From Patescibacteria group bacterium (lineage in GTDB: Bacteria > Patescibacteriota > JAQUNI01), in assembly GCA_028717685.1 (NCBI GenBank), contig JAQUNI010000001.1:1-52305 (forward strand): DNA of 52,305 nt. The letters are read 5' to 3'. The notes beneath the pieces were generated by a model. It was given only the letters and a program-made list of their open reading frames with translations, had not been told where the DNA came from and ran no database searches. The translations under genes and the position numbers were made by a program. Below, piece by piece: positions 36,828 to 52,305 of this stretch. Within the stretch, counting starts at the first letter, position 1. Each line of letters opens with the position of its first letter.

Positions 36828-36900
36828 TTATTCAGAATAAGAATCTTCGTTAGTTCAATTCTCCCAAATTAAACCATTAGTTTATGCAGAATTATAGGGT

Positions 36901-37152
36901 TCAGGTCTGGTTTTTTATTAAATTAAGTTTCCTTTTTCGCCGCCAGCTCTTAATCTCGGCTTCTCTTTGTCTTGCCTCTTTTAGTGTTTTATATTCCTCC
37001 GAATGCTTTAAAACAACCGGCCTGCGAATTTTAGTATAATGGGCGCCATGTTTTGATTGATTATGTTCTTGCAATCTCTTTTTTAGATTATTGGTGCAAC
37101 CAACATAAAGAGAATTATCCGCGCATTCAAGGATGTAAGTATAATACAACAT
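36901..37152 (-). CDS. Small GIY-YIG nuclease-domain protein
   Basis: 83 aa. YYTYILECADNSLYVGCTNNLKKRLQEHN...EAEIKSW carries the GIY...YVG and downstream Arg/Glu motifs of stand-alone GIY-YIG proteins. Confidence 0.85.
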   Translation of the reverse strand: MLYYTYILECADNSLYVGCTNNLKKRLQEHNQSKHGAHYTKIRRPVVLKHSEEYKTLKEARQREAEIKSWRRKRKLNLIKNQT

Positions 37153-37240
37153 TTTTATTTACTCGCTTTGCAGCTTACTCGCTTCGTCCTCCTTCGTCGC
37201 TCCACTCCTTAAGAATTCCTTAGTGTCTCGTTTTGTTCGA

Positions 37241-37387
37241 GCTGGGCATAAGGTACGACCCGCCTGCTCACAAGCCTGATGGCGAAGCCAATGGCGGGCA
37301 GGTCTTCGAACCTTTTTCATGCTGAATGAATGGGAAAATGAATTTGTGACAACAAAAAAACCTAGAGTTTCGAGAATTTTAACGTAA
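37241..37387 (+). repeat. R-repeat copy R1 (carries a 44-nt net hairpin insertion)
   Basis: It starts with GCTGGGCATAAGGTACGA, is interrupted by CCCGCC...GGCGGGCAGGT, then resumes CTTCGAACCTTTTTCATGCTGAATGAATGGGAAAATGAATTTGT. The 3' part is diverged. Confidence 0.85.
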
Positions 37388-37399
37388 GCGGTAATTATT

Positions 37400-37729
37400 C
37401 TATTTTAGGGCAGATAAAATTGATTTTTTCAATTCTTTCAAATCTTCTTTGCAGGTTTCCCAAATAATTCTTTTGTTTACGCCAAAATATTCATGGATTA
37501 AAACATTGCGGATGCCAATTATTTTGCGCCAAGGGATTTCGGGATTGTCTTGGCGAAATTTATCACTGACATTATTCGCTGCTTCACCGATGATTTCTAA
37601 TTCTTTCATTACGGCATCAATAATTAGATCATTGCAACTAAAAGAACCATAAGATAAACCACTCAGATATTTTTCAATCTTAGTGATTGCGTCTTGAATG
37701 TGTTTTAGGTATGTATAGTCATCTTTCAT
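37400..37729 (-). CDS. hepT: HepT-type HEPN (DUF86) toxin
   Basis: 109 aa with the Rx4HxY motif in GIRNVLIHEYFGV. It overlaps the upstream MNT gene by 11 nt. Confidence 0.9.
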   Translation of the reverse strand: MKDDYTYLKHIQDAITKIEKYLSGLSYGSFSCNDLIIDAVMKELEIIGEAANNVSDKFRQDNPEIPWRKIIGIRNVLIHEYFGVNKRIIWETCKEDLKELKKSILSALK

Positions 37730-38024
37730 AGATGATTTCTGCTTGATTTAGAACTTCATCGCGGAAATATTCACTTAGTTGTTCAGGGGTAAGAAGATCG
37801 ATGGGTTTATTAATTTGGTCTTCGAGATCATTTTTGATTTGAACAAATTTAAAAAGTCCCACTTTAGCTTTTGGCGTAAATTCAATAAGAAGATCCACAT
37901 CGCTATCTTTCTTTGCAGTTTCTGATAAATAGGAGCCAAAAAGAGAGACTTTTTGAATATCTTCTAGGTGGGGATTTTTAATAATGGCTTCTTTAATTTT
38001 AGCTTTGATGGCTTGTTTGCTCAT
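37719..38024 (-). CDS. mntA: MntA-type minimal nucleotidyltransferase antitoxin
   Basis: 101 aa with the motif LFGSYLSETAKKDSDVDLLIEF (GS...DxD). Confidence 0.9.
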   Translation of the reverse strand: MSKQAIKAKIKEAIIKNPHLEDIQKVSLFGSYLSETAKKDSDVDLLIEFTPKAKVGLFKFVQIKNDLEDQINKPIDLLTPEQLSEYFRDEVLNQAEIIYER

Positions 38025-38120
38025 AATAATATTGATAATGGATGGTTGATTTTAATATAACATTTTTGGGGGAAGGTGACAAATAAATGTGGGGGAATTA
38101 TGCTATTTTGGATTTTGAGT

Positions 38121-38156
38121 AAAAAAATAGCACAATCCATACGAGAGATTGTGCTC
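38121..38156 (-). terminator. Intrinsic terminator after the 758-aa gene
   Basis: On the minus strand, AGCACAATC-tctcgtatg-GATTGTGCT is followed by ATTTTTTT. Confidence 0.7.
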
Positions 38157-38190
38157 AATGAATGTATTCATTTACAATCTTTAATTGGGC

Positions 38191-40467
38191 TTATTTTTTA
38201 TATGCCTCTTTTCTGTTTAGCACAAAAAAATATAATTCTTTACGATCATTATTTATTCTCCAAAAGATTCTTACAGGTCCCCTTTTGAGCTTACGCCATC
38301 CCTCATAGAGCACATGCAAACGAGGAAATAAGGATCTTTGGTATGGCTCAAGCATCAACAGATATATCAGCTTATCAAGAATCTCTTCGCCTCCAACTGT
38401 TAGACTATTTTTAAAATAATCGTTGAAGGCAGTAGGGATCGGTTCAATAGCTTCATTGTTACTATTAGGATGTGCTAATACAAAGAAACTCCACCCTTTA
38501 GTTGGGCTTTGAGTATTAGTAACCGTTTCCTCTACTACTTCCACAATGACCTTCGTTTTTCTGTTCTTCTTCTTTGGAGCCCTTTGGGAAGGGGAAGTAG
38601 TTTTTGAAAAAAGATAAGAATTATAAGATAGCCCCAGTTTTTCTAATATTATCCACATCAAGAAATCCTGATGAGCCCTTCTTAACTCTTCATCTTCATA
38701 CCAATCTTTCTTTATAAGTTCATCGGCAACCAGAACTCCAAAATACTCATCTGAATCTGAAGCCTTTTGAAAAAGTTCTTTAAGATGACTGAGTTCTACA
38801 ACTTTTCCAATCCGTTTAATGAGTGTAATTATTCTCCACGCTCTGTCAAACTGATTTTTAGGAATCCTATGCCGAAGATCAGCCCGCTGAATGTCTAAAA
38901 AACCAAGAATGATTTCTATTCCTTCATCTACATCTTCCAGCTCTAGACATTCAGCTCCGCGAAGGAATAAATATTCCACAAAGTTACTTATCTCATCGGA
39001 AGCCCTGCGATGGTCTCTTGTATATTCGTCGACAATATCCATGGTTCTGCCTGGATATTTATCAATGTATACCCTCAAGCCATCAAACCCCCTTAAAGCC
39101 TCCTCTCTATCAGCACGCTGGGCTGAATCCTCTTCTTGATTTTCTGATTCAGAAGTCAACATTGCTACTAGCTCTTCTTGGAGTGGATGATCTTCTTTTT
39201 TATGACTGAGTTCACCGTCCACGTCCACAATTTCTTTTGCTAAGAAATGGGCTTCCTTGAATCTTTTTCGAGAATAAAACAAAGCAAATAAAACTTCCTT
39301 TTCCGTTCGCAATAAGTCCTCGAACTTTTTGTCTTGCTTTTTGATAAAACGTTGAAGTAATCTAATCGCTTCATCAGAATTTTTTTCTTTTAAATGAGAT
39401 AAAACGCTATTCCAGATTTTTTGGGGATTCCCCTTGGAATATGGTGGGAGAAAAGGGAAAATAAAGATGTTTTCAAGAGACAAATTGTCATAGTTACCTT
39501 TTATTATCTCTTTAAGGACTTGGTTAGATCTTTCCCGCTTTTCTTCTAACTCTTTTTTAACTATTGCTTCACTTTCCTGTTCTTCATTACCTTGGGAATA
39601 ATTGGCTATTTCATTTCTTATATCTTGAATCCAATTTTTAATGGTTTGATTAAGATCTTGTCGGTTAACACTTTCTTCAATTAGGGCTTTAACCAAATTA
39701 TAGTTCCCATCGAAATAATAAACCATAATTTTTAGGATTACGGCTACCCCATCCAAGTGTGGGCAGGAAAAATCCGGAAGCTCAAGAATTTGTTTTCGAA
39801 TATCCTCTCTTCTGAGTAAGTGTATATATTGCTCGGAAGTATCATGGCTAGACATTTCTTCAGAATTCCATAGTTCAGTCAATGGGCTCCATGCCAGCAT
39901 TAAACATTGCATAACATTGATGGGGCATATTAATGGGCCAAAGGTTGCCAGCACTTTGGCTAAAATATTGTCTCCGCAATCAATCTGACGGTAGGGCATC
40001 TGAAAATCCTTGGGGGATTTTTCAATTGCGATTTGACAGGCTTCTATATCGCCGAAAAATAAGAGCTTTGAAAGAACTTTTTCAACTTCGTTCTTATTTA
40101 TTTCTCCTGTATACTGCAAGAAATTACGCGCTGATTCAAATAAAGATAATTTATCATCAATGCGCGCTATAGTGAGCGAAAGGTGATTCCATAACTGCGC
40201 ATTCTTTGGATAGGCAGAAACCCCTGATTTGAGCATCTTAATAATTTCATTTTCAGAGGCATCATCTTCAACATCTGAATGCCGTCCTGCTATTTCGGCT
40301 TTCTTAGACCTTTCTTCATATATTTTTTCAACACAGTAAGAGGCGAGTATAAACATATTAGGACTAGGCTTTTCGGCTTGACCAATGGCTCTTTGATAAT
40401 ATTTAAGTGCCTCTTCATAACGTTTTTTGCGAAGGAAACCATTTCCTCTGTTTTCATTCGGGTTCAT
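38191..40467 (-). CDS. Large TPR-like helical protein with a C-terminal RelE/ParE-like toxin domain
   Basis: 758 aa from the ATG after AAAGGAGGA. The N-terminal TPR-like GNGFLRKKRYEEALKYYQRAI is followed by about 650 aa of helical sequence and a Lys-rich linker (APKKKNRKTK). The last ~60 aa, LYEGWRKLKRGPVRIFWRINNDRKELYFFVLNRKEAYKK, match the RelE/ParE pattern (..G.yRiiY.i.d....i.il.i.hRkeaY). Confidence 0.75.
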   Translation of the reverse strand: MNPNENRGNGFLRKKRYEEALKYYQRAIGQAEKPSPNMFILASYCVEKIYEERSKKAEIAGRHSDVEDDASENEIIKMLKSGVSAYPKNAQLWNHLSLTIARIDDKLSLFESARNFLQYTGEINKNEVEKVLSKLLFFGDIEACQIAIEKSPKDFQMPYRQIDCGDNILAKVLATFGPLICPINVMQCLMLAWSPLTELWNSEEMSSHDTSEQYIHLLRREDIRKQILELPDFSCPHLDGVAVILKIMVYYFDGNYNLVKALIEESVNRQDLNQTIKNWIQDIRNEIANYSQGNEEQESEAIVKKELEEKRERSNQVLKEIIKGNYDNLSLENIFIFPFLPPYSKGNPQKIWNSVLSHLKEKNSDEAIRLLQRFIKKQDKKFEDLLRTEKEVLFALFYSRKRFKEAHFLAKEIVDVDGELSHKKEDHPLQEELVAMLTSESENQEEDSAQRADREEALRGFDGLRVYIDKYPGRTMDIVDEYTRDHRRASDEISNFVEYLFLRGAECLELEDVDEGIEIILGFLDIQRADLRHRIPKNQFDRAWRIITLIKRIGKVVELSHLKELFQKASDSDEYFGVLVADELIKKDWYEDEELRRAHQDFLMWIILEKLGLSYNSYLFSKTTSPSQRAPKKKNRKTKVIVEVVEETVTNTQSPTKGWSFFVLAHPNSNNEAIEPIPTAFNDYFKNSLTVGGEEILDKLIYLLMLEPYQRSLFPRLHVLYEGWRKLKRGPVRIFWRINNDRKELYFFVLNRKEAYKK

Positions 40468-40612
40468 TAGATCATATCCTCCTTTCAAGGAATGAATTAG
40501 TAAAGAACATTAACGGTTTAACTTTAACCTTATAATAATAGAATATTTTCGTATTTAGTCAATGAAATATGGTTTTACTAAAAAATGTCTTTAATAAGCC
40601 ATTTTAATGCAA

Positions 40613-40690
40613 GCTGGGCATAAGGTACGATCTTCAAACCTTTTTTATGTTGAATGAATGGGAATGCCCTGTAAAGACAGCAACTTTGAT
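40613..40690 (+). repeat. R-repeat copy R2 (internally deleted)
   Basis: GCTGGGCATAAGGTACGATCTTCAAACCTTTTTTATGTTGAATGAATGGGAA then jumps to TGCCCTGTAAAGACAGCAAC, which matches the sequence found about 10 nt after the stop of R3. Confidence 0.8.
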
Positions 40691-40771
40691 AGGTTAAAAG
40701 TTGAAGGAATTACTTTCAAAACGAAAAGGTGCTGGCAAAAATAGAATCAACCCCTATTTCCCTATTTCCTC

Positions 40772-41347
40772 CTAGTTACCATTTGCAATTTTCTTGGCTC
40801 CAGCATATTGAGGATTAATCCATTTAGGAACCTGCTTCTTCCCTGTGACTCTCGTTTTAAGTATGCTAAAAATATATTCTAATTGTTTTGTTTCTTCTGG
40901 GGTATAAGTGATTTTTTTAAATTTCCTTTCTCCATGCCCCGGAATTTGATGGGTTCTTTTTCTTGCTTCATACATAATCAGAACCGCCGCCTTCCACAAA
41001 ATGAATTCTCTGGCCTTCTTTGTTCTTAATGGATATTTTTCAAAGTGAGGAATAACTGCCTTTACCAAATCTGGAATTGAGGTTACTTGCCATTGAGCTT
41101 GACCATAAGCATGCAAGAGTTTCAATGATTTTGGATTTGATACTGCAAAGTTTCCGCAACCATTAAAATATTTTTGAATATCTTTTAGAATACTTTGATC
41201 GTCACCTCTAAGATTAATTGCAAATGCGGCTTTCCAATAAAAATAATGAAAAATTTTACTTTTCTTTTGTTGTTTATCCTTCCTAACATAAATTGTAAAG
41301 CACCCCTCTCCGTCGGTAAATCCTGTAATATAATATGGATGAATCAT
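40772..41347 (-). CDS. LAGLIDADG-family homing endonuclease (single-motif type)
   Basis: 191 aa with YITGFTDGEGCF near the N-terminus and a size typical of homodimeric LAGLIDADG enzymes. Confidence 0.85.
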   Translation of the reverse strand: MIHPYYITGFTDGEGCFTIYVRKDKQQKKSKIFHYFYWKAAFAINLRGDDQSILKDIQKYFNGCGNFAVSNPKSLKLLHAYGQAQWQVTSIPDLVKAVIPHFEKYPLRTKKAREFILWKAAVLIMYEARKRTHQIPGHGERKFKKITYTPEETKQLEYIFSILKTRVTGKKQVPKWINPQYAGAKKIANGN

Positions 41348-41353
41348 GATTTT

Positions 41354-41881
41354 TTATGAAAGTCTAATGCAATAATTTTTTGGGTAAACTATCCATACTT
41401 CTTTGAAATCACTGTTATGAAAAATAATTTTAAATTTTTCTGTTACATTATTTTTGACTCGCGTGGTGACATTCCAGAATCCGTCCAGTAGAAGAATTAT
41501 TTCTTTTCTCTCTTTGCGATCCAGATTCGACAATTTTATGATTTCTTTTTTCCATTGGTCGATTAATGGGTGGCACTCTCCTTGATCAACTATTCTTAAA
41601 AAGCTGCCAATTTTTTTATCGTTAAGATATCTTCTTGCTTCGGGATCAAAAGTTTTGATTTGTAGTTTTAATACTTTTTTGATATCAGACTTACTATTTA
41701 TTAAAACATCAATAGAGTCATCAATGTTGGGTTGGATTTCTGACAGAATGTAATTTGTTTGATTTTTTCTATTATAGAATTTAACAAATCTGGAGGCAAC
41801 TTGTAGTTCTTCAGGTTTATGGGGATCATCCGAATTTTTTATTAGTTTTTGAATTTGTGCAATTGTTTTGCATATCAACAT
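41354..41881 (-). CDS. Hypothetical protein (175 aa)
   Basis: The ORF ends 6 nt before the LAGLIDADG start. I recognise no family. Confidence 0.55.
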   Translation of the reverse strand: MLICKTIAQIQKLIKNSDDPHKPEELQVASRFVKFYNRKNQTNYILSEIQPNIDDSIDVLINSKSDIKKVLKLQIKTFDPEARRYLNDKKIGSFLRIVDQGECHPLIDQWKKEIIKLSNLDRKERKEIILLLDGFWNVTTRVKNNVTEKFKIIFHNSDFKEVWIVYPKNYCIRLS

Positions 41882-41990
41882 TATTTTTTATAACAAAAAG
41901 TAAAATATCTATCTTTAATTATGTCTCGAAATTGGTATTAAGGCAAACATTCTGCTTCTTTTAGCTATTTCTATAATATGCCTATTTGTT

Positions 41991-43106
41991 TTATTGACAA
42001 AAGGCATTGAAAGAGGTAAATGTCCGAGGGGCCATATGCCAATCTTCTAAAATACTCCGGCTACATCCGTACTTGTAATGGCCGCCGAGACCTTCTCCAT
42101 GTGTTTCAGTCATCCTTGATAGTATTTGATCACAACTACAACCATATGTATAGTCCATATTAAAGTTTTTGGATGGCTTTTTTCCTTTACTTGCAGTAGT
42201 TTCCCAGCTATCCCCATCCCACATCCAACGGTTTACTCCAAGCCTTATCGAGGGATCATCTGCAACTGTTTCTGGACATTGATCATCTGTATTCAAAACT
42301 CCATCGCCATCTTCATCAACTTCGATGTTAGTAGTGTCAGCGAGGCACCGAACAGAATAACCGAACGCCTTTTGATAGTTGGAGCGGTAAATCATATCAT
42401 TGCCAGAACCCATGCCACGATTCCACATGTAAGAAGGGACTATGTGTGGGAGTAATTGTTCAGAGGATGACAAAAAATGAATAGCTGGCTCACGCTTGTC
42501 AAAAAAACTGTCTTCCCCATTCGTTTCATGGTTGCCAGCTCCTATCGCATCAAAACCGGAGCTTCCGCCGAGCTTGAGTTTAGTTCCAGCATCGGCACAG
42601 CCCCAACCCAACCTTGCCGCATCACATGTCTGCCCCGGTGTTTTTAGATAATTTTCCAGTATATAAAATTCCTCATCAGTCGGGATGTGCCAACCGTTGG
42701 GACAGATGCCTTGATTGAGAGTTGGAATACTGCAAGAAGTCAGATTGCAAGAATCAGGCAGGGCGTTGGCTTCGGCCCAGGTATATAATCCTCCTTCGCT
42801 GGTGCAATAAGCTAGAGAATTGTCATAACACCATTTTGAAAAAGTGTTTGGATCATTGAGGGTTGGAGCGGTGTCATCAGGGGTTTCAAAATTCCCTATC
42901 ATTTCTCCAGCATTGAGATTTTTTTTGAACCAACATTGGGTGCCGATGAGAACTGTATTGTAGGTAACGCCTCCGTATGAGCAAGCGTTTCCGCAGGTCG
43001 TCGAAGCGCTACATTCAGCTGCCTTAGTATCTTTTGGAAAAAGAATTATAGCTCCGGCCAGCATGATTAGGATCAGTAGACATTTTTTGATCTTTATGTT
43101 TTTCAT
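41991..43106 (-). CDS. Secreted FISUMP-domain protein with a thrombospondin-type-3-like Ca-binding repeat
   Basis: 371 aa with a signal peptide. GVTYNTVLIGTQCWFKKNLN, GGLYTWAEA, ICPNGWHIPTDEEF and YSVRCL match the Fibrobacter succinogenes major paralogous domain. DEDGDGVLNTDDQCPE is a TSP3-like repeat. Confidence 0.8.
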   Translation of the reverse strand: MKNIKIKKCLLILIMLAGAIILFPKDTKAAECSASTTCGNACSYGGVTYNTVLIGTQCWFKKNLNAGEMIGNFETPDDTAPTLNDPNTFSKWCYDNSLAYCTSEGGLYTWAEANALPDSCNLTSCSIPTLNQGICPNGWHIPTDEEFYILENYLKTPGQTCDAARLGWGCADAGTKLKLGGSSGFDAIGAGNHETNGEDSFFDKREPAIHFLSSSEQLLPHIVPSYMWNRGMGSGNDMIYRSNYQKAFGYSVRCLADTTNIEVDEDGDGVLNTDDQCPETVADDPSIRLGVNRWMWDGDSWETTASKGKKPSKNFNMDYTYGCSCDQILSRMTETHGEGLGGHYKYGCSRSILEDWHMAPRTFTSFNAFCQ

Positions 43107-43387
43107 AGGTTTTTAGTTGATAATAAAAAAGCAAAACGCCTACCCTCAATCTCAAAAACTTGAATCGGATGATTAGTAAACATTTTGCTTGTTTTAGCTC
43201 TTTTTATGATATACCTATTCGGTTTTCTTGGTAAACGGGTTCAAATATTGTAATTTCGAACTTTTTTGATTTTTAACATTCGAACTCTTTGTCTTTGGCT
43301 TAATGCAACCGAGAATAGACCGTTTTTAGCTCGGTCATCCTAGCAAGCTGGGGAGGCAGGATCTCTCGGCAAGCTCGAGATTAAACA

Positions 43388-43684
43388 TTACCTCTCTAAC
43401 CTTTCGACAGTCTCAGGGCCTTTACTAAGTTTTTTGAGAAGATCGATATTTTGCTTAATTAACGCTAACTTCTTTGGGAAGCTCCATTTTTTAAGTTGAA
43501 TTTCTCTATTTTCAGCGTCTTGCCGTCTATTATATTTTTCATAATAAACAAGCCTTATATCAGAAAACCTCTTGGTGTAGAATGATTTTTTATTTTTATG
43601 TTGAGAGATTCTTTCTTGAAGGTCATTCGTGATACCAATATAAAAGATTTTCTGATTGCAAAGAAGAATATATGTATACCACAT
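43388..43684 (-). CDS. Small GIY-YIG nuclease-domain protein
   Basis: 98 aa. WYTYILLCNQKIFYIGITNDLQERISQHKN...ENREIQLKKW. Confidence 0.85.
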   Translation of the reverse strand: MWYTYILLCNQKIFYIGITNDLQERISQHKNKKSFYTKRFSDIRLVYYEKYNRRQDAENREIQLKKWSFPKKLALIKQNIDLLKKLSKGPETVERLER

Positions 43685-43716
43685 TTTTTGAGGACAGGCC
43701 CTGAGCCTGCCGAAGG

Positions 43717-43819
43717 GCTGGGCATAAGGTACGATCTTCGAACTTTTTTTGTCCTTAACGAATGGAAAAATGAGTTTATAAAAGAAAAAAAGGTTAGAGT
43801 CCGGAAAGTCTATGCGTAG
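43717..43819 (+). repeat. R-repeat copy R3
   Basis: GCTGGGCATAAGGTACGATCTTCGAACTTTTTTTGTCCTTAACGAATGGAAAAATGAGTTT...GTCTATGCGTAG. Similarity to the R4 flank continues to about 43990. Confidence 0.9.
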
Positions 43820-43903
43820 GATAGATTGTGCCAGCCAAAGACAGCAACTGTCATTGTTTAAGCTTAGGTTGAATGTTATTCAATTTTTGGTTTTTATTTA
43901 TTT

Positions 43904-44206
43904 TCAAATACTTTTAACGTTTAATTCTAATTTCTTAATTCTTTTTTCATGATTTTCAAGATCATCGGAAAAACGGCGGTTCTGTGAGTATTACATGGTG
44001 TTTTCCTGGACTAAAGTTTCCAGATTTTTAGCTATTTTATCATTGCTAGTTAAAACCTGATCAAATTTTTCTGACATTTCCTCTCTAAGATCATTTTCGA
44101 GATTTTTTAAATCTTGTTTGGTCGCAAAAACCTCTTCCATGGCTGGAATTAAAACTTCCCGAATATCTTTAATGGTTAATGGTTGGTTGTCTATCGGTTT
44201 AGGCAT
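43904..44206 (-). pseudogene. Small coiled-coil ORF interrupted by an in-frame TAA (71 aa + 28 aa)
   Basis: ORF 43991..44206 ends in TAA. The same frame continues YSQNRRFSDDLENHEKRIKKLELNVKSI to 43904. The tail aligns codon by codon with the end of ORF 46862..47083, with TAA opposite CAA. Confidence 0.45.
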
Positions 44207-44539
44207 AGATCTATGTCTTTAGTATAACATTCTATTAAGATAAGTTAAAGTGTGGATAAAAATATCGTTTAGATTTTTTATTATTCAAATTTTGGTTAGA
44301 TTATTCGTGCGCCTTATCGCTTTAATCGCTTTTTTAACATCTCTGGTTATTTCCCACTGTTTGGCACTTTTATTCCTGACTCTGATTTTAGTAAAGATTT
44401 TCATTGCCTCTTTACGTTGTTTGGTTGCAGAATTCATAAATTTTACAGGAATAAGTAATATTAGGTAAATGGAAGGGAAAATACAATCATGATGGAGAGT
44501 TTTATTGTTAAGGTATAAGACTTTAACTAATCAATGAAT

Positions 44540-45350: not shown

Positions 45351-46202
45351 CTAATTAATAATGAACTCTGTTTCGAGTTCATTATTCTGCGGCACATATT
45401 GCCGCCATATCCTCCCATTATTGAACCATAGCGGATCTATAACAAGACCCGTCGTTCCTGGTTTTAGTCCCTGATATCCCACTGCAAAGAATGTAGACGT
45501 AGGTAAAGATCTGCCGTATGTCCAACCCATGCATAAAAGAAATCCAGGGCCTGCTGGAAGTGTCCATAGATAAACGTCCTCTACCTTACAATTGATTGAA
45601 ACAATATTAATTGCTTCAGGATCATATCGTATCACGAAACAGAAACCATTTATTCCATTTAGTCCGTAAAATGAGAGAATACTATACTCATTCATATTGC
45701 CTGTCCACTTGGCAGAGAGCTTAATCGTTGGAACAACTCTAAGTGTTCCTTCTATCCCATAGACCGCCGGACCTGTGTAGAGGTATGATTTATATCCGCC
45801 ATCAGAGAAATATATATCTCTAATACAAATATAGTTCATTCCTTCTACCAGTCCTTGGAAGTTCATGGTCAGCCTGAACTCGTTCGGAAGATTCCCGTTT
45901 TCCGCCCAACCGGTGAAGAAGTAGGCGTTATCTTCATTGGGGTGTTGGAAGTAGTTTATTGTGACTCCTTCTGATGAATACACGCTATTCAAGGCCAAGT
46001 TCGGGGGAAAGGTCATGTAGAATCTAAAAATAGTTGCTTTTAATCCTCCAATACCGGAGAAATTCATGTATTTGTCTACATTGTTACCAACCGCTACTTC
46101 GTAGTTGTGGTCGTTAATGTTTACATAAACTTCCGCCAGAGATGAGGTTGCAAGGGTTAAAACCATTAATCCAGCCAACGCGAACAAAGACATCTTTTTC
46201 AT
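45351..46202 (-). CDS. Secreted hypothetical protein (283 aa)
   Basis: It has a signal peptide (MKKMSLFALAGLMVLTLATSSLA), a beta-rich composition and an AAGGAG RBS. Confidence 0.65.
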   Translation of the reverse strand: MKKMSLFALAGLMVLTLATSSLAEVYVNINDHNYEVAVGNNVDKYMNFSGIGGLKATIFRFYMTFPPNLALNSVYSSEGVTINYFQHPNEDNAYFFTGWAENGNLPNEFRLTMNFQGLVEGMNYICIRDIYFSDGGYKSYLYTGPAVYGIEGTLRVVPTIKLSAKWTGNMNEYSILSFYGLNGINGFCFVIRYDPEAINIVSINCKVEDVYLWTLPAGPGFLLCMGWTYGRSLPTSTFFAVGYQGLKPGTTGLVIDPLWFNNGRIWRQYVPQNNELETEFIIN

Positions 46203-46499
46203 TGCATACTCCTTAATGTGTGAATGTGTGGGTTGTAGAAAGAATAGAGAACAGGGTAACTTTTGATTATTTTGACCGCTTAGTTTGTGTGTAACATTAT
46301 CGCTTAAAAGAGCGCTTTGTACTTAAACTCGAAGTTTAGGCACAAATTAGCTATTTCAAGTGAACGAGGAATTTGAAAAGGGCAAGAATGAGCGGAATAT
46401 CGAAAAATATGGAAGAAATTGAAAAGAGATAGTTTTGTTTATAGATTTTGCACTATATCATACTTATTACAATCTGTCAATATTTTGAGACTATTTTAG

Positions 46500-46565
46500 C
46501 TAAAATAAGGCAAAAAAATGCCATTCAACTGGCACATTTTTAATTTTGTGATTGTAGTATGGCAT
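46500..46565 (-). pseudogene. 5' remnant of a GIY-YIG gene (21 codons)
   Basis: The ATG and its upstream bases (CAT-TTTTATGTACT on the plus strand) match the start region of GIY-YIG gene 36901..37152 (CAT-TTTTATTTACT). The following ~60 nt up to R4 match the spacer before R1. The ORF reads MPYYNH.. and then stops. Confidence 0.5.
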
Positions 46566-46648
46566 TTTTATGTACTTTATAATTTCGGCACTTCGTTCTC
46601 CTTCGTCGCTCCGCTCCTCGGAGTTCCTCAGTGTCTCGTTTCACTCGA

Positions 46649-46751
46649 GCTGGGCATAAGGTACGATCTTCGAACCTTTTTCACTCTAAATACTTGGGAA
46701 AACGAGTTTGTGAAGAGAAAAAAGGTTAGGGTTAGGAAGGTTTATGCGTAA
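46649..46751 (+). repeat. R-repeat copy R4
   Basis: GCTGGGCATAAGGTACGATCTTCGAACCTTTTTCACTCTAAATACTTGGGAAAACGAGTTT...GTTTATGCGTAA. Confidence 0.9.
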
Positions 46752-46861
46752 TATAGAATATGCCAGCCAGAGACGAACAGCGCCATTATAAAAGGTTGGT
46801 GAATATTACTCAATTTTTTTCTTCATCTATTTGTCAAATAGTTTTAACTTTTAGCTCTAAT

Positions 46862-47083
46862 TTATTGATTCTTTTTTCGTTGAGCTTCAAGACGATCTAA
46901 GAAACGGCGATTTTGAGAAAATTGTATTTTCTTTTGTTGGATTAAATCATCTAGCTTTTTCAACATTTTATCTAGGACATTCATTACGAGATTGATGTTT
47001 TTTTTGATAGCAAACTTTTCCAAATTATATTTGGGAGCAAAATTCAGTGTATTCTCTTTACGTTGTTTGGTTGCATAATTCAT
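46862..47083 (-). CDS. Small basic coiled-coil protein (73 aa)
   Basis: The first 10 codons (MNYATKQRKE) are 29/30 nt identical to 44408-44437. The last ~15 codons are homologous to 43904-43990. Confidence 0.5.
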   Translation of the reverse strand: MNYATKQRKENTLNFAPKYNLEKFAIKKNINLVMNVLDKMLKKLDDLIQQKKIQFSQNRRFLDRLEAQRKKNQ

Positions 47084-47135
47084 ATTATTGATATATCAAT
47101 CTCATTTAGGTGATATATTCTCTAACCATTAGCGC

Positions 47136-47258
47136 TTGAAGCCGTGTGACTTGGAGAGTGGTGATGACTTGAGCGATAGTGGATTCAAGCCACGTGCTTC
47201 TAGCCATTACGGCTCGAAGCGTGATGATTCGAAGCATTACGGCTCTATGCACCATGAT
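47136..47258 (+). repeat. Tandem array T1: 8 degenerate units with 15-nt period (one 18-nt unit), consensus TCGAAGC + 8 nt
   Basis: The units are ttgaagccgtgtgac / ttggagagtggtgatgac / ttgagcgatagtgga / ttcaagccacgtgct / tctagccattacggc / tcgaagcgtgatgat / tcgaagcattacggc / tctatgcaccatgat. Confidence 0.8.
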
Positions 47259-47499
47259 TATTTATATCTGACGATTCTGTTTTCAGCGAAAAATAATGTT
47301 GTTTTTCACTTTTTAATTCCATTGCAATAACATCGGAATAGCCTTTGTTTTTAAAATATTTAGTTTCTTGAACAAAATTTTCAAAAGCGGATTTTGCATC
47401 ATCTCCACTATTAACTCCTAAAACTTGCATATTTTCAACATCCTCTTCACTTGGGGTTTTAGTTTCACCCTCATGGGTGAGGAAAATAAAATGTTTCAT
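47245..47499 (-). CDS. Hypothetical protein (84 aa)
   Basis: Trimmed to ATG MKHFIFLTHEG. The 3' end overlaps array T1. Confidence 0.45.
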   Translation of the reverse strand: MKHFIFLTHEGETKTPSEEDVENMQVLGVNSGDDAKSAFENFVQETKYFKNKGYSDVIAMELKSEKQHYFSLKTESSDINNHGA

Positions 47500-47598
47500 T
47501 GTTTTATTGTTAGAAAATCTGTCACATCTTCTTCTATGAAGTCTTATCACCGCACGTAACGACGGAATCGAATAATATGGTATCGCTGAATTCTAGAA

Positions 47599-48240
47599 TT
47601 ACAGGGGATAAATTACTTCATAGGGAGATTCACGTTTATAATCCTTCCATAAAGACCGTACATCCTGTTTAAAGACTTCCATAAGGAAATCTTCTATTCG
47701 CTCACCATTATAAATCCAGTCATTAAGATTTGGGATAAAATTTTTTTCTGGGCTTTTCCTCTCCAACCAGATGATGAATGCTGCGGCACAATAGTATATA
47801 TCAGTTTCGTAGCATTTTCCTTGCGGACACTCAATCTTCCAACCTAGATCGTCTTTGCCAAATCTATATCTGCAATATTGCGCCATACCTTCTATAATCC
47901 ATTTTTGAGTATCATCACCATACTTGTTCTTCTCAGGATAATTTTGAACGATGTGACCGACCTCGTGAACCAAGCACCCCATGTCCTCTAAAGAGTTATC
48001 AATACCATATTCAATCTCTGTTTTTTGGTTGTTTACGCCTAAGCCACTTCCTTTACGGAAGGATATCTTAATCTTATCATGCGGCACTTTTTTCTTAAGG
48101 AAATCAAATACCCCTTGGTAGTGCTTATCAAAATATTCCACCAACCTTTGGGCCCTTTTGTGGCAACTCGGAAACATCGAATAATCGAATACACAATGAT
48201 GGCCATATATAATGTATTTGTTGCTATTTTCTGTTCTCAT
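47599..48240 (-). CDS. HExxH zinc metallopeptidase (resembles basic-secretory-protein-like peptidases)
   Basis: 213 aa from the ATG after GGGAGGA, with HEVGHIVQ followed by WIIEGMAQYCRYRFG (HExxH + E, gluzincin-type spacing). Confidence 0.65.
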   Translation of the reverse strand: MRTENSNKYIIYGHHCVFDYSMFPSCHKRAQRLVEYFDKHYQGVFDFLKKKVPHDKIKISFRKGSGLGVNNQKTEIEYGIDNSLEDMGCLVHEVGHIVQNYPEKNKYGDDTQKWIIEGMAQYCRYRFGKDDLGWKIECPQGKCYETDIYYCAAAFIIWLERKSPEKNFIPNLNDWIYNGERIEDFLMEVFKQDVRSLWKDYKRESPYEVIYPL

Positions 48241-48477
48241 GAGATCCTCCCGCATATTAGTCAAAATTTAGACATTCAAATGAATCTACTGCTACCATAA
48301 ACCTACTGTAAAGGTTAAGAAACTTTGTAGCTTTATTGAACGTCATCTAATCAGAGAGCTCTCCGCCAAATCTCTTTTTATAAAACTCCTTAAACTCATT
48401 TATATCCTTCTCGGATAACACTTTGTTTTAATTGATTTTGTATTTTATCTATAATGTCAAAATGCTAAAGATATGAA

Positions 48478-49023
48478 TTAAGAATTTTTATCCTCAATTG
48501 GTCTACCGAAATAGTTACTTAATGCCCATCCCAAGTGGTGACGCCCCCAATCAGTCATAGTAATAATTTTATTGCTCTTATATTTTTCTAAAAAAGTTTT
48601 TGGAATATAATGAATAGTTAAAAAATCTACCAAGGAATCTCCTATAATTCCTTCTAATTCTGGTAAATAGAACCAGTAGTTAATTTTGCGTTTTTTTATC
48701 AGTCCTGCTTTACCATCTGTAAGTATACCGTTATCTTCAAATAGTTTAATCGGATAAACCGGGGCAATAATTATATTTTCTTTATCCTGAACATCGCAGG
48801 TTTGAGATAATATAATTATATTATTCAGCTTTGCGTTTATCGCTAAAAGCGCCTCGCCATTATTAAATGATTTCTCCCCAATCTTTATTGCTTCGTATGT
48901 GTTGGTCTTTTTTAGGTTCTTTAAACTTCGCAATTCATCTTCAAAAATAAAAAAGGGGGCGTTTTTGATGACATCCCCTTGATATAAAATATCAAAACTC
49001 AAATCTTCCGATTTCACATACAT
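48478..49023 (-). CDS. Hypothetical protein (181 aa), third gene of the protease operon
   Basis: It begins 12 nt after the preceding gene and has a conserved-looking ILSQTCDV motif. I cannot assign a family. Confidence 0.6.
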   Translation of the reverse strand: MYVKSEDLSFDILYQGDVIKNAPFFIFEDELRSLKNLKKTNTYEAIKIGEKSFNNGEALLAINAKLNNIIILSQTCDVQDKENIIIAPVYPIKLFEDNGILTDGKAGLIKKRKINYWFYLPELEGIIGDSLVDFLTIHYIPKTFLEKYKSNKIITMTDWGRHHLGWALSNYFGRPIEDKNS

Positions 49024-49035
49024 AAAATCTAAACA

Positions 49036-49242
49036 TTAAAAGCTTTTGGTTTCAAAAACCTTTTTATAAAACTTTATTCTGTCTTCTTTAGAAATCGTTT
49101 CTTCTGGGGATAAATCATCAAAGATGATGGGGTTTGAATTAAATTTATAGTCTTTCTTACTGTCGTTAACATCGGAATTAGAACTCTCGTGGAGAGTAAT
49201 GTCTTCAGCACCTGTTTGTGAAAAATATTTATATTGGGTCAT
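49036..49242 (-). CDS. Small acidic protein (68 aa), second gene of the protease operon
   Basis: It begins 10 nt after the protease stop and has a D/E/S-rich, probably disordered composition. Confidence 0.5.
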   Translation of the reverse strand: MTQYKYFSQTGAEDITLHESSNSDVNDSKKDYKFNSNPIIFDDLSPEETISKEDRIKFYKKVFETKSF

Positions 49243-49252
49243 ATATTTTATA

Positions 49253-50269
49253 CTATTTTTCTAACAACCATTGGTTGTTGATATTATTAACAATAAATTG
49301 TTGTCTCCCCGACGGATCGGGGGTTTTCAAAATTTGATAAGTTGATTTGAAATTATATTTTATTTTATTACTGCGAACAATTGCTCTTACCAGATTCATA
49401 GTCTTTTCCTGTGCTTCTCCTAATATCTGCGATGGATTAAATTCCTTCTTTGTTTCTAAGAATTCGTTACACTCATCGAATAAATCATCAACTAATTCCT
49501 TTGTTTTTGGTTTTGCGAATTCTATTATATTACCAAACCCAATTAAATCCCTTGCTTCTCTTCGGTTAATTAAATGCCTATGGGAATATAGCTTTTGAGT
49601 TAAATTCTCAATTATTTCTTTGCTTTGCTTGTCAGTAAGCCTCTGTTTATGCAAATCTAATAGATTTTTCGTTAATCTTCTAACCAACGCATGAGTGCGG
49701 TTAACGGACCCAAGCAATGTAGGGTTAATTTCTTTTGCTAATTCCTTCATAACCTCAGCTAAAGACGACTGTTCTGCAATTCCTATTTTTTCTCTTGCGA
49801 GATCAATAAACCCAATAATATCTTCTATTTCAAATCTTTTTATCTGCTTTTTATCATTGTCAACAATATCAGCTGCTGGGTCTACTGGGCCTAATTGTGA
49901 ATAAGGAAGCATTACAATCTTATCTGCCCCTAAAGCAATCATTGTGCCTGCGCTTAGTGCCTTCTCTGGCACAATAACCTCGAAAGCACCACAATATTCT
50001 CTTATTAAATTTACAAGTGGCCAAGGAGTTTCTAAGTGACCGCCATTAGTATTAAGAACTAATGATATTTTATTTGTATTCTGACCAAAACTTTCAACAA
50101 TTTCTTTAAAAAATGGTAAGACGTCTGACGCTATTTGAGTAGCGAATTGCTGAGGAGGGTTCTTCTCCCCCGTAAAATAAACAATGACTCGAGATTTTCT
50201 TTCGCCCTCAAGCTGTTCAATTAGAGTCTTTTTTATTGCTTTTCTCTTAGTATTAGATTTATTAGGCAT
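49253..50269 (-). CDS. Clp-fold serine protease of the SDH (serine dehydrogenase proteinase)/SppA-like family
   Basis: 338 aa from an ATG. The block VIVYFTGE...ISLVLNTNGGHLETPWPLVNLIREY...VIVPEKALSAGTMIALGADKIVMLPYSQLGPVDP matches the ClpP/SppA-type nucleophile-Ser context, and a helical C-terminal half follows. Confidence 0.75.
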   Translation of the reverse strand: MPNKSNTKRKAIKKTLIEQLEGERKSRVIVYFTGEKNPPQQFATQIASDVLPFFKEIVESFGQNTNKISLVLNTNGGHLETPWPLVNLIREYCGAFEVIVPEKALSAGTMIALGADKIVMLPYSQLGPVDPAADIVDNDKKQIKRFEIEDIIGFIDLAREKIGIAEQSSLAEVMKELAKEINPTLLGSVNRTHALVRRLTKNLLDLHKQRLTDKQSKEIIENLTQKLYSHRHLINRREARDLIGFGNIIEFAKPKTKELVDDLFDECNEFLETKKEFNPSQILGEAQEKTMNLVRAIVRSNKIKYNFKSTYQILKTPDPSGRQQFIVNNINNQWLLEK

Positions 50270-50597
50270 ATGAGTATATTCACTATAACCCAAAATAATA
50301 TTTTTTACTAGCCTTTACTACCTTGAATGTCTTACTGACGAAACTATTAACATATTAAAAAGAAGAAAAATTTAAAACTACTGAACGTAGGTTGAGTAAA
50401 AAAAGTATGAGTTACCATGAGTAGTTATGAGATAAATTAATTATATTTTAACTTTTTTGTTTTTGTAGGGTAATAAAATCCTATTTCGTACTCGAATTTA
50501 CCTTCGAACCGAATATTTTAGCTAATTTAAGCTCATTTTAGGAAAACCGTACGGACTGGGGTATAAAGGGTAAAAAATCTTCGAACCATAATTTTCT

Positions 50598-50622
50598 CTA
50601 AAAAATCGCCTTTTCAGGCGAT
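50598..50622 (-). terminator. Intrinsic terminator just past R5 (gene orientation)
   Basis: On the minus strand, ATCGCC-tgaaaa-GGCGAT is followed by TTTTTT. Confidence 0.65.
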
Positions 50623-50633
50623 AGTACGAACTG

Positions 50634-50736
50634 GCTGGGCATAAGGTACGATCTTCGAACCTTTTTTATGCTTAATGAGTGGAAAAATGAGTTTGTAGAA
50701 GGGAAAAAGGTTAGAGTTCGGAAGGTTTATGCGTAA
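50634..50736 (+). repeat. R-repeat copy R5
   Basis: GCTGGGCATAAGGTACGATCTTCGAACCTTTTTTATGCTTAATGAGTGGAAAAATGAGTTT...GTTTATGCGTAA. Degenerate core-like fragments lie at about 50486-50510 and 50552-50587. Confidence 0.9.
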
Positions 50737-50849
50737 ATCAAAGCTTACGTGAAGTATGCCCGCCAAAGATGATAACCGTCATTATTTTATGCTTTGGTGG
50801 ATTTTATTCAATTTTTTATTTTTACGATAGTGCTCCTAACCATCAACGC

Positions 50850-50923
50850 TCGAAGCCATACGGCTTGGAGAATGGTGGCTCTAAAAATAGTGCTTCGAAG
50901 TATTACGGTTGGATATTCTCTAC
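50850..50923 (+). repeat. Tandem array T2: 5 units of 15 nt, homologous to T1
   Basis: The units are tcgaagccatacggc / ttggagaatggtggc / tctaaaaatagtgct / tcgaagtattacggt / tggatattctctact. The array is flanked by CTAACCAT at 50836 and 50927. Confidence 0.8.
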
Positions 50924-50934
50924 TCTAACCATTA

Positions 50935-51579
50935 TTAAATGCGAGCATTTTTATCGCCTAGACATACTTGATGGTTCATGTTCCAGAACAAATCTTTTGC
51001 GTCTTCAAGATCATTTGAATCTTTAGAATGAGTTAGTAAAGACACGATTTCGGTTTTAAATGCTTTTTTTGAATTTTCCGATGCCTCTTTTGTAGTATGC
51101 CCTTTAATTAATGAGATTGCTACTTTATTGGATGGATCCAAAAATCTTTCCGCGCGTTTATCTTTTAATGGATGATTGAGAAAATTGCGATCTATGTTTA
51201 GAATAAAGGAATCTTTATAGCCGATAAACGAAGCTTTGTTGTGAGCGCAAACTTTTTTTCCTAATACTTTTGCGGAGGAGCAAGAAACAGCATAGGTAAT
51301 CCGATTTTGAAGCAGGACCTCATTTTCCCCTACTTCTACCAAAACTTCATTATCATGACCACAGATGGAAAAGTTGTCGCCGTGTCCGTTTAATAATACT
51401 AAAGAAGGATCAGTTTTTTTGATCCTTCCGGTGAAATCTTTTTGGTTAGCCTTTTTTTAATATAAATCAATGACATCAATCCCTTTCTTTTTGGCGTTTT
51501 CAATAACTTTCGTATTCCAGTGGGATAAATGCCTGGTCAAGGGATCATGTTCTGGGCGCGTGATGAGAATTTTAGCCAT
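50935..51579 (-). pseudogene. Caspase-like (His-Gly ... Cys) protein ORF with an in-frame TAA at codon 41
   Basis: ATG at 51579, 40 codons, TAA at 51457-51459 next to an A7 run, then 173 more in-frame codons. The merged protein has LVLLNGHGD and, 34 aa later, ITYAVSCSSA, the strand-HG / strand-C layout of clan CD peptidases. Confidence 0.45.
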
Positions 51580-51582
51580 TTA

Positions 51583-51843
51583 TTATTGTTGATTAGAAAG
51601 TTCATGAACAATGCCTTTTTTGAGGGCTTTAAGCCATTCCATTTCTACTTTTTCAATGGTTTTGCCAATGTTATCTCCTTTTTGGACGTGCGCGATTAAC
51701 TGATCTCGACTGTAATAACCAGCATTTCCGATACATTTAATTGTATCTGGGGAAATAGTTTTTAGACGGGCAACCACAAGTTTCCTGATTTCCTCATCAG
51801 TGGAAATACTATTATTGGTCTTTTTTTGACTTTTTTTATTCAT
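51583..51843 (-). CDS. Hypothetical protein (86 aa)
   Basis: It is tightly coupled to its neighbours, starting 1 nt after the upstream stop and ending 3 nt before the downstream ATG. Confidence 0.5.
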   Translation of the reverse strand: MNKKSQKKTNNSISTDEEIRKLVVARLKTISPDTIKCIGNAGYYSRDQLIAHVQKGDNIGKTIEKVEMEWLKALKKGIVHELSNQQ

Positions 51844-51844
51844 G

Positions 51845-52033
51845 TTAAATTAATTCAAGTTTTTCTAATTTAGCTAAAATTGTTTTACCGGCTGGAGTAT
51901 CATTATCAATTTCGAAAAAAGCGACATCCCAAGTAATGGGTCTGTTATCGAGGGTTAAAATAATCTCGTTTCGGAGATTGAGGGGTAGATTGGCATAAAC
52001 TTTGAGAAATTTTTCTTTGGAAGTTAAGGGCAT
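51845..52033 (-). CDS. Hypothetical protein (62 aa from the ATG; 85 aa if the TTG at 52102 is used)
   Basis: First gene of a three-gene string. The start is uncertain. Confidence 0.45.
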   Translation of the reverse strand: MPLTSKEKFLKVYANLPLNLRNEIILTLDNRPITWDVAFFEIDNDTPAGKTILAKLEKLELI

Positions 52034-52147
52034 GATTTTTGGGTAATATATTTTGGTAGCATGGCTTGAGTTTAATATAGCATTTTTGGAATAAATTGCC
52101 AAACAAATATATCTGATGTTATTTCGTGTTGGGGTAGGGGAAACAAA

Positions 52148-52305
52148 TTATTTATAAAATGATTGTAATTTTTTATCTATTCTGCCGAGTATTTCCAAGT
52201 GTAAGTTAGTCATAAAGTCATTCCATAACATGTATGGGTGTTTGAATTCTTTTATTGTAGCAACTATTTCCTCTGGTTCTTTTTTTACAAATTTTCGATA
52301 TCTCT
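52148..52305 (-). CDS. 3' end of an ORF running off the window (52 codons seen)
   Basis: The minus-strand frame reads ..RYRKFVKKEPEEIVATIKEFKHPYMLWNDFMTNLHLEILGRIDKKLQSFYK-stop (stop at 52148-52150). It is not in the ORF track because it is partial. Confidence 0.35.
   Translation of the reverse strand, partial: RYRKFVKKEPEEIVATIKEFKHPYMLWNDFMTNLHLEILGRIDKKLQSFYK

Follow-up and report, generated by a model that had tools for sequence, protein, structure and literature searches.

A co-oriented cargo array partitioned by a tRNA-like repeat at a putative tRNA-Gln attachment site in a Patescibacteria genome

Introduction

The stretch of DNA analysed here, hereafter the window, comprises 52,305 nt of a Patescibacteria genome (contig JAQUNI010000001.1, assembly GCA_028717685.1), and its right end consists of co-oriented blocks of accessory genes that are separated by five copies of a direct repeat, R. 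This region is read as the distal part (15.5 kb) of an ~18-kb variable island whose anchor is a putative tRNA gene, situated ~2.4 kb past the right edge of the window. The locus is a real mobile-DNA hotspot, and it is best read as a tRNA island with attachment (att) scars rather than an integron. The island probably arose by the tandem accretion of cargo elements without an integrase at a tRNA-Gln attachment site, where they would have been recombined by an enzyme acting in trans. Directly observed are the graded conservation of R, the homology of its core and flank to the tRNA end, a 17-nt stretch of the array that matches the tRNA end exactly, and, in the closest relative (L004), a turnover of cargo with a synteny breakpoint at the core. 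Comparable arrays or inserts that are anchored at tRNA-Gln and carry no integrase occur in other Patescibacteria (loci L080 and L092).

Patescibacteria have genomes of ~1 Mb with few recognised mobile elements, and the turnover of their accessory and conflict genes is poorly understood. Together with three comparable Patescibacteria loci, the window points to a recurrent hotspot downstream of tRNA-Gln in which integrase-less cargo units are stacked. If the site is indeed recombined in trans, the locus would represent a compact gene-capture platform, and we know of no such platform described in this phylum; the 28-nt motif at the heart of R provides a concrete query for further cassettes and for the enzyme. 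If the blocks are no more than integrative elements in decay, this is a tRNA island of the ordinary kind, of value as a well-resolved example from an uncultivated lineage.

Structure and conservation of the repeat R

All five copies of R have the same orientation and lie exactly at block boundaries, and they share a core of 28 nt (GCTGGGCATAAGGTACGATCTTCGAACC on the plus strand) that is conserved at 93–100%. The core starts at 40613, 43717, 46649, and 50634 with zero or one mismatch, and no such match is expected in shuffled sequences. In R1, which starts at 37241, the core is interrupted after GGTACGA by a 44-nt hairpin insertion (37259–37302), and it is 100% identical to the others once the insertion is removed; the insertion is missing from the orthologous R of L004 and is seen in Logan contigs from three samples. 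A sequence-only reading of the window, made from its letters and open reading frames (ORFs), had placed the five copies at these positions, in one orientation and with a common 28-nt core, and had described the R1 insertion and an internal deletion in R2, and alignment bears out each of these points. In R2, the deletion joins the arm of the repeat to sequence that is otherwise located downstream. The length of ~105 nt given in that reading describes real repeats and is too short, as R3, R4, and R5 align over 150–190 nt, and R3 and R4 over 328 nt including a common small ORF.

Identity is graded across the repeat, falling from 93–100% in the core to 61–84% in the arm, which occupies the tRNA-proximal side. 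On the side of the core away from the arm the copies are unrelated, except for the leaders of GIY-YIG genes that are found at R1, at R4, and in L004 (73–84% identical). The arm side is part of the 3′ end of the block before it and includes a hairpin that resembles a terminator and has a T-rich tail; this agrees with the earlier claim that each R sits at the 3′ end of a block in gene orientation. R also carries a promoter-like element. A profile search with R returned the five copies in the extended window (the extension is described below) and one copy in L004; the remaining 36.8 kb of the window and ~1.3 Mb from other Patescibacteria loci yielded none. An exact 20-mer of the core was not found in the GTDB species genomes or in IMG/VR, and its sole match in JGI metagenomes was rejected as a chance match within a membrane-protein gene.

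Homology of R to the tRNA end at the head of the array

Run SRR22315506 supplied two Logan contigs, L001 and L002, that match the window at 100% identity and break off within the R4 and R5 cores. L002, which is identical to window positions 50637–52305, reaches position 54698, 2393 nt past the window end, and terminates in ATTCGCAGGTTCGAATCCTGCCTCCCCAGCTA, which contains a perfect T-arm (GCAGG-TTCGAAT-CCTGC) followed by the acceptor 3′ strand and G73. This tRNA end is on the same strand as all of the cargo genes, with the S6 flank and the tRNA 3′ end at ~54669–54698 in extended coordinates. Because the terminal sequence resembles the tRNA-Gln genes of L080 and L092 and the tRNA-Gln of E. coli, the tRNA at the head of the array is read as tRNA-Gln.

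In the direction of the tRNA, the R core (GGTTCGAAGATCGTACCTTATGCCCAGC) has the same beginning and the same end as the tRNA end (GGTTCGAATCCTGCCTCCCCAGC) and contains five extra bases. These bases would disable the tRNA end as part of a tRNA, and the core is described here as a conserved pseudo-tRNA site. The resemblance between R and the tRNA is not due to chance: the R5 core and the adjoining 180 nt of flank (50662–50454) align with the tRNA end and its downstream flank (54692–54497) at 76% identity over 211 nt (E = 3e-34). Of the TTCGAAC motifs in the extended sequence, 11 out of 12 fall in the array.

The array also contains an exact 17-nt copy of the tRNA end, situated behind the second of its GIY-YIG genes, g3 (Table 1). 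At this site an unrelated left half is joined to a tRNA-type right half, and from its sequence the copy reads as an attR-type scar bounding a single-gene GIY-YIG cassette after R3. The flank of the tRNA is likewise repeated: modules of this type, termed S, are found after the tRNA, after the R5 core, where the module (S5) includes a terminator-like hairpin at 50605–50622, and after a related core in L004. The block that encodes a FISUMP protein has an R arm at its 3′ end and a weakly S-like 5′ end, and the same pair of ends (S at 5′, R arm at 3′) is common to two blocks of the window and one single-gene cassette of L004. The degenerate core-like fragments listed in the sequence-only reading are real and prove to be pieces of the tRNA end and its flank, with the exception of 36850–36872, which is only weakly core-like.

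Cargo turnover in the closest relative

The TypA protein of the window assigns the organism to the Patescibacteria (Candidatus Doudnabacteria); its closest match is encoded in a Candidatus Doudnabacteria metagenome-assembled genome (L004/L084) and is 96% identical. L004 has the same core genes, an orthologous GIY-YIG gene (90% identical in amino acids), and a single R at the same junction, and the cargo upstream of this R is entirely different. The L004 copy is 84% identical to R1 on the GIY-YIG side, and its arm is 84% identical to that of R5 and 70% identical to that of R1. Because the L004 copy is orthologous to R1 on the GIY-YIG side only and its arm is nearest to R5, synteny breaks at the core. 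The sequence-only reading had proposed that relatives be compared for breakpoints inside the core, and the outcome in L004 favours exchange there. L004 also contains a second family of junctions, Q, which ends in a related 28-nt core (AGTTCTAACGTTGTCCACGATGCCCAGC) that matches the R core at 19 of 28 positions.

A 9-kb extension of the relative's contig contains no tRNA. In a search for an ancestral empty site, no tRNA was found beside typA in 25 other Patescibacteria loci, and the synteny is therefore not kept in more distant relatives. Upstream of the variable region of the relative, L084 1–9935 holds an element with a large serine recombinase, a Toprim primase, a DUF5659 protein, and an excisionase-like HTH_17 protein.

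Comparable loci in other Patescibacteria

In L092 (308–1994), a tRNA-Gln is followed by a 1.6-kb insert with an AbiEii gene between perfect 30-nt direct repeats, and the repeat begins inside the tRNA, comprising the 3′ end of tRNA-Gln and 12 nt of its flank. No integrase is present within 10 kb. After the AbiEii insert, L092 carries a methyltransferase and HinfI-type restriction pair.

In L080 (1–3200), four one- or two-gene cassettes (tRNA_bind, Abi_alpha, bPH_2, and unknowns) lie downstream of a tRNA-Gln. Each cassette ends in AACAGGTTCTAACATCGTCCCATAGCCCCAGCTA, a 28-nt look-alike that equals the tRNA end with five extra bases. The sites of this array are ~35 nt long and have no palindrome. 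In its second repeat, the left half is of the repeat type and the right half of the tRNA type, and the flank of the tRNA reappears after the last repeat. The core genes obg, engB, and typA follow the array of L080, and the motif occurs a fifth time 11 kb away, at 14183, where it separates two genes of the same orientation.

Two repeats of ~75 nt with the same type of core surround a 3.8-kb block with a Fic gene in L012, and L080 and L012 share an identical 16-nt left half of the core, GGTTCTAACATCGTCC. The same 16 nt have 14 matches in IMG/VR, 13 of which stand in unrelated contexts and are consistent with chance. The remaining match is on the phage-like IMG/VR contig L095, which encodes a capsid, a portal, and a terminase and in which the full context of the 28-nt motif is found near the contig end on the minus strand (14200–14740), after a terminator; a G+C-rich, structured-looking stretch of ~400 nt follows the motif, and neither a tRNA nor an Rfam family was found nearby. 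A core-like motif is also present ~200 nt upstream of a GIY-YIG gene in L089; a link between this motif and the tyrosine integrase element of the same locus was considered and rejected, as no flanking repeat was found.

Proposed mechanism of accretion

Cargo elements without a recombinase of their own would have been inserted successively at the tRNA 3′ end, and each R would be the junction left between two neighbouring elements. In the direction of the tRNA, such a junction consists of the 3′ end of the upstream element, with its terminator-like hairpin and ~75-nt arm, the 28-nt core, and the 5′ end of the next element, which is either a GIY-YIG gene cassette that includes the leader or an S module of ~180 nt copying the downstream flank of the tRNA. 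The core imitates the tRNA from the T-loop to the acceptor end, and strand exchange would occur in or beside it. Because no recombinase is encoded by the window ORFs, the extension, or the arrays of L080 and L092, the enzyme is expected to act in trans. It would most likely be a tyrosine integrase that targets tRNA genes, with its own gene at another place in the genome or on a helper element. The blocks may once have moved as units and, with the enzyme encoded elsewhere, would behave as cis-mobilizable or satellite elements, unlike the cassettes of integrons. Among the architectures put forward in the sequence-only reading, tandem site-specific integrations each regenerating an att core are thus the best supported, since a tRNA end heads the array, R is homologous to it, a 17-nt copy of it lies inside the array, and synteny breaks at the core.

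A bolder version of this model, which we regard as speculative and rather unlikely, holds that the locus belongs to an undescribed gene-capture system of Patescibacteria, one that works like an integron and is built otherwise: the 3′ end of tRNA-Gln would serve as the platform, the cassettes of 1–4 kb would each carry a 28-nt pseudo-tRNA site, and a single recombinase encoded elsewhere would insert and shuffle them. The site of such a system may have the form GGTTC[T/G]AA..TCGT.C-N7-CCAGC, and its cargo may be rich in toxin–antitoxin, Abi, nuclease, and protease genes. The enzyme would bind to the conserved left half of the site, and the variable right half would match the local tRNA.

Several results weigh against tandem accretion at a tRNA-Gln site. 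The tRNA is identified from its last 30 nt alone (the T-arm and the acceptor 3′ strand), and its 5′ part lies beyond all of the sequence compared. The R core differs from the resident tRNA end in length (28 versus 23 nt) and in its acceptor-side sequence, and recombination between R and the tRNA is therefore not self-evident. The duplicated flanks (S of up to ~180 nt, and a 52-nt flank, X, at the distal end of the array) exceed a classical att core, and the duplication of S could also stem from homologous or illegitimate events. Pfam searches revealed no tyrosine or serine recombinase in 40 window ORFs (long ORFs of the array and 20 sampled from the rest), and no recombinase in the block between R5 and the tRNA end, including the 2.4-kb extension, or in the L080 and L092 arrays. 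Neither a cognate integrase nor an integrase fragment was seen in the ~18-kb island, and these searches found no cognate integrase in the ~54.7 kb of sequence compared. The sequence-only reading had stated that the window holds no integrase, and none was found in the ORFs searched; its expectation of one just to the right of 52305 is not borne out within 2.4 kb, where a tRNA end is found instead. The sole recombinase near the array of L004 is a large serine recombinase ~16 kb away, apparently in a separate element. The assembled sequences that were compared gave no sign of an excised product, of a circular junction, or of an empty site, and R1 is invariant in Logan contigs from three samples.

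Alternative explanations

The long duplicated segments (S of ~180 nt, X of 52 nt, and the 328 nt shared by R3 and R4) raise the alternative that the island is a flexible region shaped by homologous recombination and local duplication, in which conserved intergenic modules with the role of terminator, promoter, or operator (R, S, Q, and X) serve as homology anchors, the tRNA likeness derives from an old duplication, and no site-specific recombinase takes part. The terminator-like hairpin, T-rich tail, and promoter-like element of R fit this explanation, as does the absence of a recombinase gene in cis, and the left half of the core, GTTC-N7-GTCC, could be a protein operator. It is nevertheless unlikely, because the core is conserved well above the arms and marks the synteny break in L004, because the perfect 30-nt direct repeat of L092 starts inside the tRNA, and because an identical 16-nt left half recurs in unrelated genomes. 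In addition, at repeat 2 of L080 and at window 43346–43362 the right half is of the tRNA type and the left half is repeat-type or unrelated, with the joint at one and the same position of the T-loop region; this is the signature of a site-specific exchange.

A hotspot driven by homing endonucleases, also among the options of the sequence-only reading, is distinctly unlikely. GIY-YIG and LAGLIDADG enzymes would cut at or near the tRNA-like core, repair would copy the endonuclease gene together with adjoining cargo, and R would be a cleavage site or homology arm. This option draws on the GIY-YIG gene or leader remnant found immediately after the core at three junctions of the window (R1, R3, and R4) and at the R of L004; the two GIY-YIG lineages of the window are only 38% identical, which argues for a repeated association. 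The core-like motif upstream of the GIY-YIG gene in L089 points the same way, as does the LAGLIDADG gene that is the last gene before R2. The GIY-YIG family is 70–80% identical across many Patescibacteria, consistent with mobility, and a member lies inside the RNase P RNA gene in L043. However, the GIY-YIG proteins are bare catalytic domains of 83–98 aa with no recognisable DNA-binding domain, and the adjoining core is intact at R3, at R4, and in L004, whereas insertion usually disrupts or alters a homing site. R2 and R5 have no endonuclease gene, nor do the arrays of L080 and L092, and the GIY-YIG genes are equally readable as single-gene cassettes between cores.

An ordinary miniature inverted-repeat transposable element (MITE) or other dispersed repeat accumulated in an accessory region is very unlikely: R does have short terminal inverted repeats (GCTGGGCATA and TATGCCAGCC, ~125 nt apart), and assembly contigs do break at R, but the copies are co-oriented and sit exactly at block boundaries, L004 has its single R at the orthologous junction, core and flank are homologous to a tRNA end, and the genome-wide scatter that the sequence-only reading had named as a sign of a MITE is not seen in the rest of the window or in the related loci.

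Least credible of all is a sedentary integron or a cluster of attC sites lacking integron-integrases (CALIN), in which R would be an attC-type folded single-strand site for an IntI-type integrase encoded beyond the window; the co-oriented genes between co-oriented conserved sites of 105–190 nt, an imperfect palindrome that R can form (GGGCATAA with TTATGCC and AACCTTTTT with AAAAAGGTT), and the tightly packed one- or two-gene cassettes of L080 recall such arrays, but CTCTAAC fails the consensus RYYYAAC at position 1, GTTCGAA fails GTTRRRY at two or three positions, the two boxes are complementary at only 4 of 7 positions, the z-scores of single-strand DNA folding are inconsistent between copies and strands (−0.5, −1.9, and −3.75 on the plus strand; −0.2, −1.5, and −2.8 on the minus strand; −0.6 and −0.1 for the L004 copy), the sites of L080 lack a palindrome, and the platform is a tRNA end rather than an attI beside intI, with no IntI found in the window ORFs or the extension. 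The sequence-only reading had itself argued against a classical integron from the multi-gene blocks, their own terminators, and the approximate core sites, and all of these arguments hold.

Relation to known systems

The architecture itself is already known from tRNA islands, cis-mobilizable elements, and tycheposon arrays; what is unusual here is the conserved pseudo-tRNA site of 28 nt, the missing recombinase, which is not found in cis in four arrays, and the host phylum. Cis-mobilizable elements (CIMEs) form arrays with integrative and conjugative elements (ICEs) and integrative and mobilizable elements (IMEs) at a tRNA-Lys gene in streptococci by tandem accretion. Tycheposon islands of Prochlorococcus consist of tandem elements that are separated by partial tRNAs, together with degraded remnants (bioRxiv 10.1101/2020.12.28.424599). 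As in these tRNA islands, a tRNA gene would stand at the island head, co-oriented partial tRNA 3′ ends lie between elements, cargo varies between close relatives, and integrase-less remnants persist; newcomers would push older elements away from the tRNA. In contrast to them, no integrase or integrase fragment was seen in the ~18 kb described here or in the parallel arrays, the recurrent site is a 28-nt look-alike with five extra bases and with a left half that has been kept in unrelated genomes, the elements are of very small size (1–4 kb, and one or two genes in L080), and the host belongs to the Patescibacteria.

Integrons and CALINs share with the array an ordered series of co-oriented cargo, a conserved recombination-type site between units, a lack of recombinase inside the array, and a cargo rich in toxin–antitoxin genes, and the compact cassettes of L080 add to this likeness. 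The site described here is not an attC hairpin, as it misses the consensus and folds weakly and inconsistently, the platform is a tRNA 3′ end, the blocks of the window are multi-gene with their own terminators, and no IntI was found.

A further parallel is provided by integrative mobile elements exploiting Xer (IMEX) at dif and by pdif modules, which are likewise integrase-less, have 28-nt sites, form tandem arrays with direct site repeats, and rely on a host enzyme in trans, as is proposed here. Unlike dif, the 28-nt R core has little two-arm inverted symmetry, its arms matching at 5 of 11 positions. In a comparison by hand with what we take to be the E. coli dif sequence, one arm of the R core agrees with the XerC arm in 9 of 11 positions and the other arm in 4 of 11. 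The array lies at a putative tRNA gene and not at a demonstrated replication terminus, and R sites are all direct, whereas in pdif modules the orientation of the sites alternates.

Free-standing homing endonuclease genes (GIY-YIG Seg-type and LAGLIDADG) resemble the locus in that a small GIY-YIG gene with a conserved leader recurs beside a conserved sequence and that a family member is found inside a stable-RNA gene in another genome. They differ from it in that the proteins encoded here have no recognisable DNA-binding domain, the adjoining core is intact, and several junctions have no endonuclease gene.

Cargo blocks and features of the array

Between 36901 and the end of the window, the minus strand carries all of the long ORFs, as the sequence-only reading had stated for the genes of this region. 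The blocks are 2.7–4 kb long with 3–7 ORFs each, and some contain terminator-like hairpins. Pfam matches confirmed two GIY-YIG proteins, HepT, MntA, LAGLIDADG, FISUMP, a BSP-family peptidase, and an SDH/ClpP-like protease. The GIY-YIG remnant it had recognised at R4 is represented by the leader and the first few codons, and nothing more of the gene is present; the arrays T1 and T2 that it had proposed were not reported by Tandem Repeats Finder. PADLOC returned no matches for the cargo. The features of the array and its junctions are listed in Table 1.

Table 1. Coordinates of the repeats, flanks, cassettes, and cargo blocks of the array (window positions).
Feature	Start	End	Strand	Description
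X	36844	36895	-	52-nt flank between GIY-YIG g1 and the core genome; direct repeat present twice in L004 (5234-5286, 8439-8490)
Terminal cassette	36901	37240	-	Conserved leader (37153-37240) and GIY-YIG g1 (36901-37152, 83 aa); ortholog in L004, 90% identical (aa)
R1	37241	37387	-	Core (37241-37258 and 37303-37312) split by insertion, with tRNA-proximal arm; joins the TPR/RelE-like-MntA-HepT block to the terminal GIY-YIG cassette
R1 insertion	37259	37302		44-nt hairpin CCCGCC...GGCGGG exactly mid-core; single occurrence in the window
Cargo block	37400	40488	-	765-aa protein (weak TPR matches, RelE/ParE-like tail), MntA, HepT
R2	40613	40760	-	Core with one mismatch, arm with internal deletion; joins the FISUMP/175-aa/LAGLIDADG block to the TPR/RelE-like block
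Cargo block	40772	43106	-	FISUMP protein, 175-aa unknown, free-standing LAGLIDADG endonuclease
Degenerate S-like flank	43247	43345	-	Follows the 17-nt tRNA-end copy; TTCGAAC fragments at 43255 and 43279; weak similarity to S5 and S6
tRNA-end copy	43346	43362	-	Exact 17-nt ATCCTGCCTCCCCAGCT, the 3′ end of the tRNA heading the array; 26 nt after the GIY-YIG g3 stop
GIY-YIG g3	43388	43684	-	98 aa, 38% identical to g1; start 33 nt after the R3 core
R3	43717	43896	-	Core, arm, and terminator-like hairpin with T-rich tail
Cargo block	43991	46202	-	283-aa unknown with signal-peptide-like N-terminus, 159-aa unknown, small ORFs
g1-type GIY-YIG remnant	46518	46648	-	After the R4 core; leader (73-80% identical to R1/L004 leaders) and first few codons, then terminator-like hairpin
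R4	46649	46830	-	Core, arm, and hairpin
Cargo block	46862	50293	-	SDH/ClpP-like protease, 68-aa and 181-aa ORFs, BSP-family peptidase, small ORFs
S5	50454	50633	-	Flank after the R5 core, homologous to the tRNA downstream flank; degenerate GGTTCGAAG...CCCCAG units
R5	50634	50824	-	Core, arm, and hairpin
tRNA-proximal block, distal part	50935	52305	-	Runs on past the window to ~54470; HD_3 protein, 318-aa and 172-aa unknowns

The blocks that end at R3 and R4 have a common 3′ module of ~330–430 nt (43991–44438 and 46862–47084), which is 74% identical over 328 nt, contains short ORFs starting with MN(S/Y)ATKQRKE, and includes a 31-nt stretch that is 97% identical. The two GIY-YIG genes are read as single-gene cassettes, one bounded by the R1 core and X, the other by the R3 core and the 17-nt tRNA-end copy. 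When the array proteins were looked up, g1 was identical on contigs from three samples, and the other proteins were on one contig only or had no record.

Members of the same GIY-YIG family are also found at RNase P RNA genes. In L043 (6504–7125) the family member lies inside such a gene, with ORFs at 6771–6980 and 7128–7331, and in L066 (~14850–15313) it lies inside or against a bacterial RNase P RNA gene. A match to the Rfam family RF00010 spans the GIY-YIG ORF with E = 2.4e-13, below the gathering score.

On the plus strand, the R arm (43745–43819, 46677–46751, and 50662–50736) contains an open frame of 33 codons with a shared stop (…LNEWKNEFV..KKVRVRKVYA, then the stop codon), in which the differences between copies are mostly at third codon positions. 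The arm was rejected as the 3′ end of a current plus-strand gene, since an internal TGA interrupts the L004 copy and the frame is broken in R1, and no homologue of the frame was found in a set of 5.8 billion proteins, in 1.84 billion representatives, or in phage records. R was also rejected as a known RNA, with no Rfam match at gathering or E-value thresholds and no tRNA reported by ARAGORN in the array. The left half of the core, GTTC-N7-GTCC or more generally GTTC-N7-GT(C/A)C, is conceivable as a protein operator and resembles the direct-repeat SOS boxes of other phyla. A LexA homologue is encoded in the window at 3779–4384.

Other repeats in the window

Dispersed intergenic repeats that are built on the palindrome CCCCGTTTAGAAATTTATTTCTAACGGGG and are distinct from R occur in the window at 7673–7741, 21782–21850, 30168–30236, 12565–12599, and 18826–18860. 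A G+C-rich palindromic repeat, CTCCCCCTCGGGCAGGGGGAG, is present at 10449–10502 and 16106–16159, and in L004 (4635–4675) it adjoins a Q junction. Outside the array, at 31552–31646, repeats with a period of 9 nt form ~8 in-register copies in the minus-strand region between obg and the gene for an HI0933-like protein.

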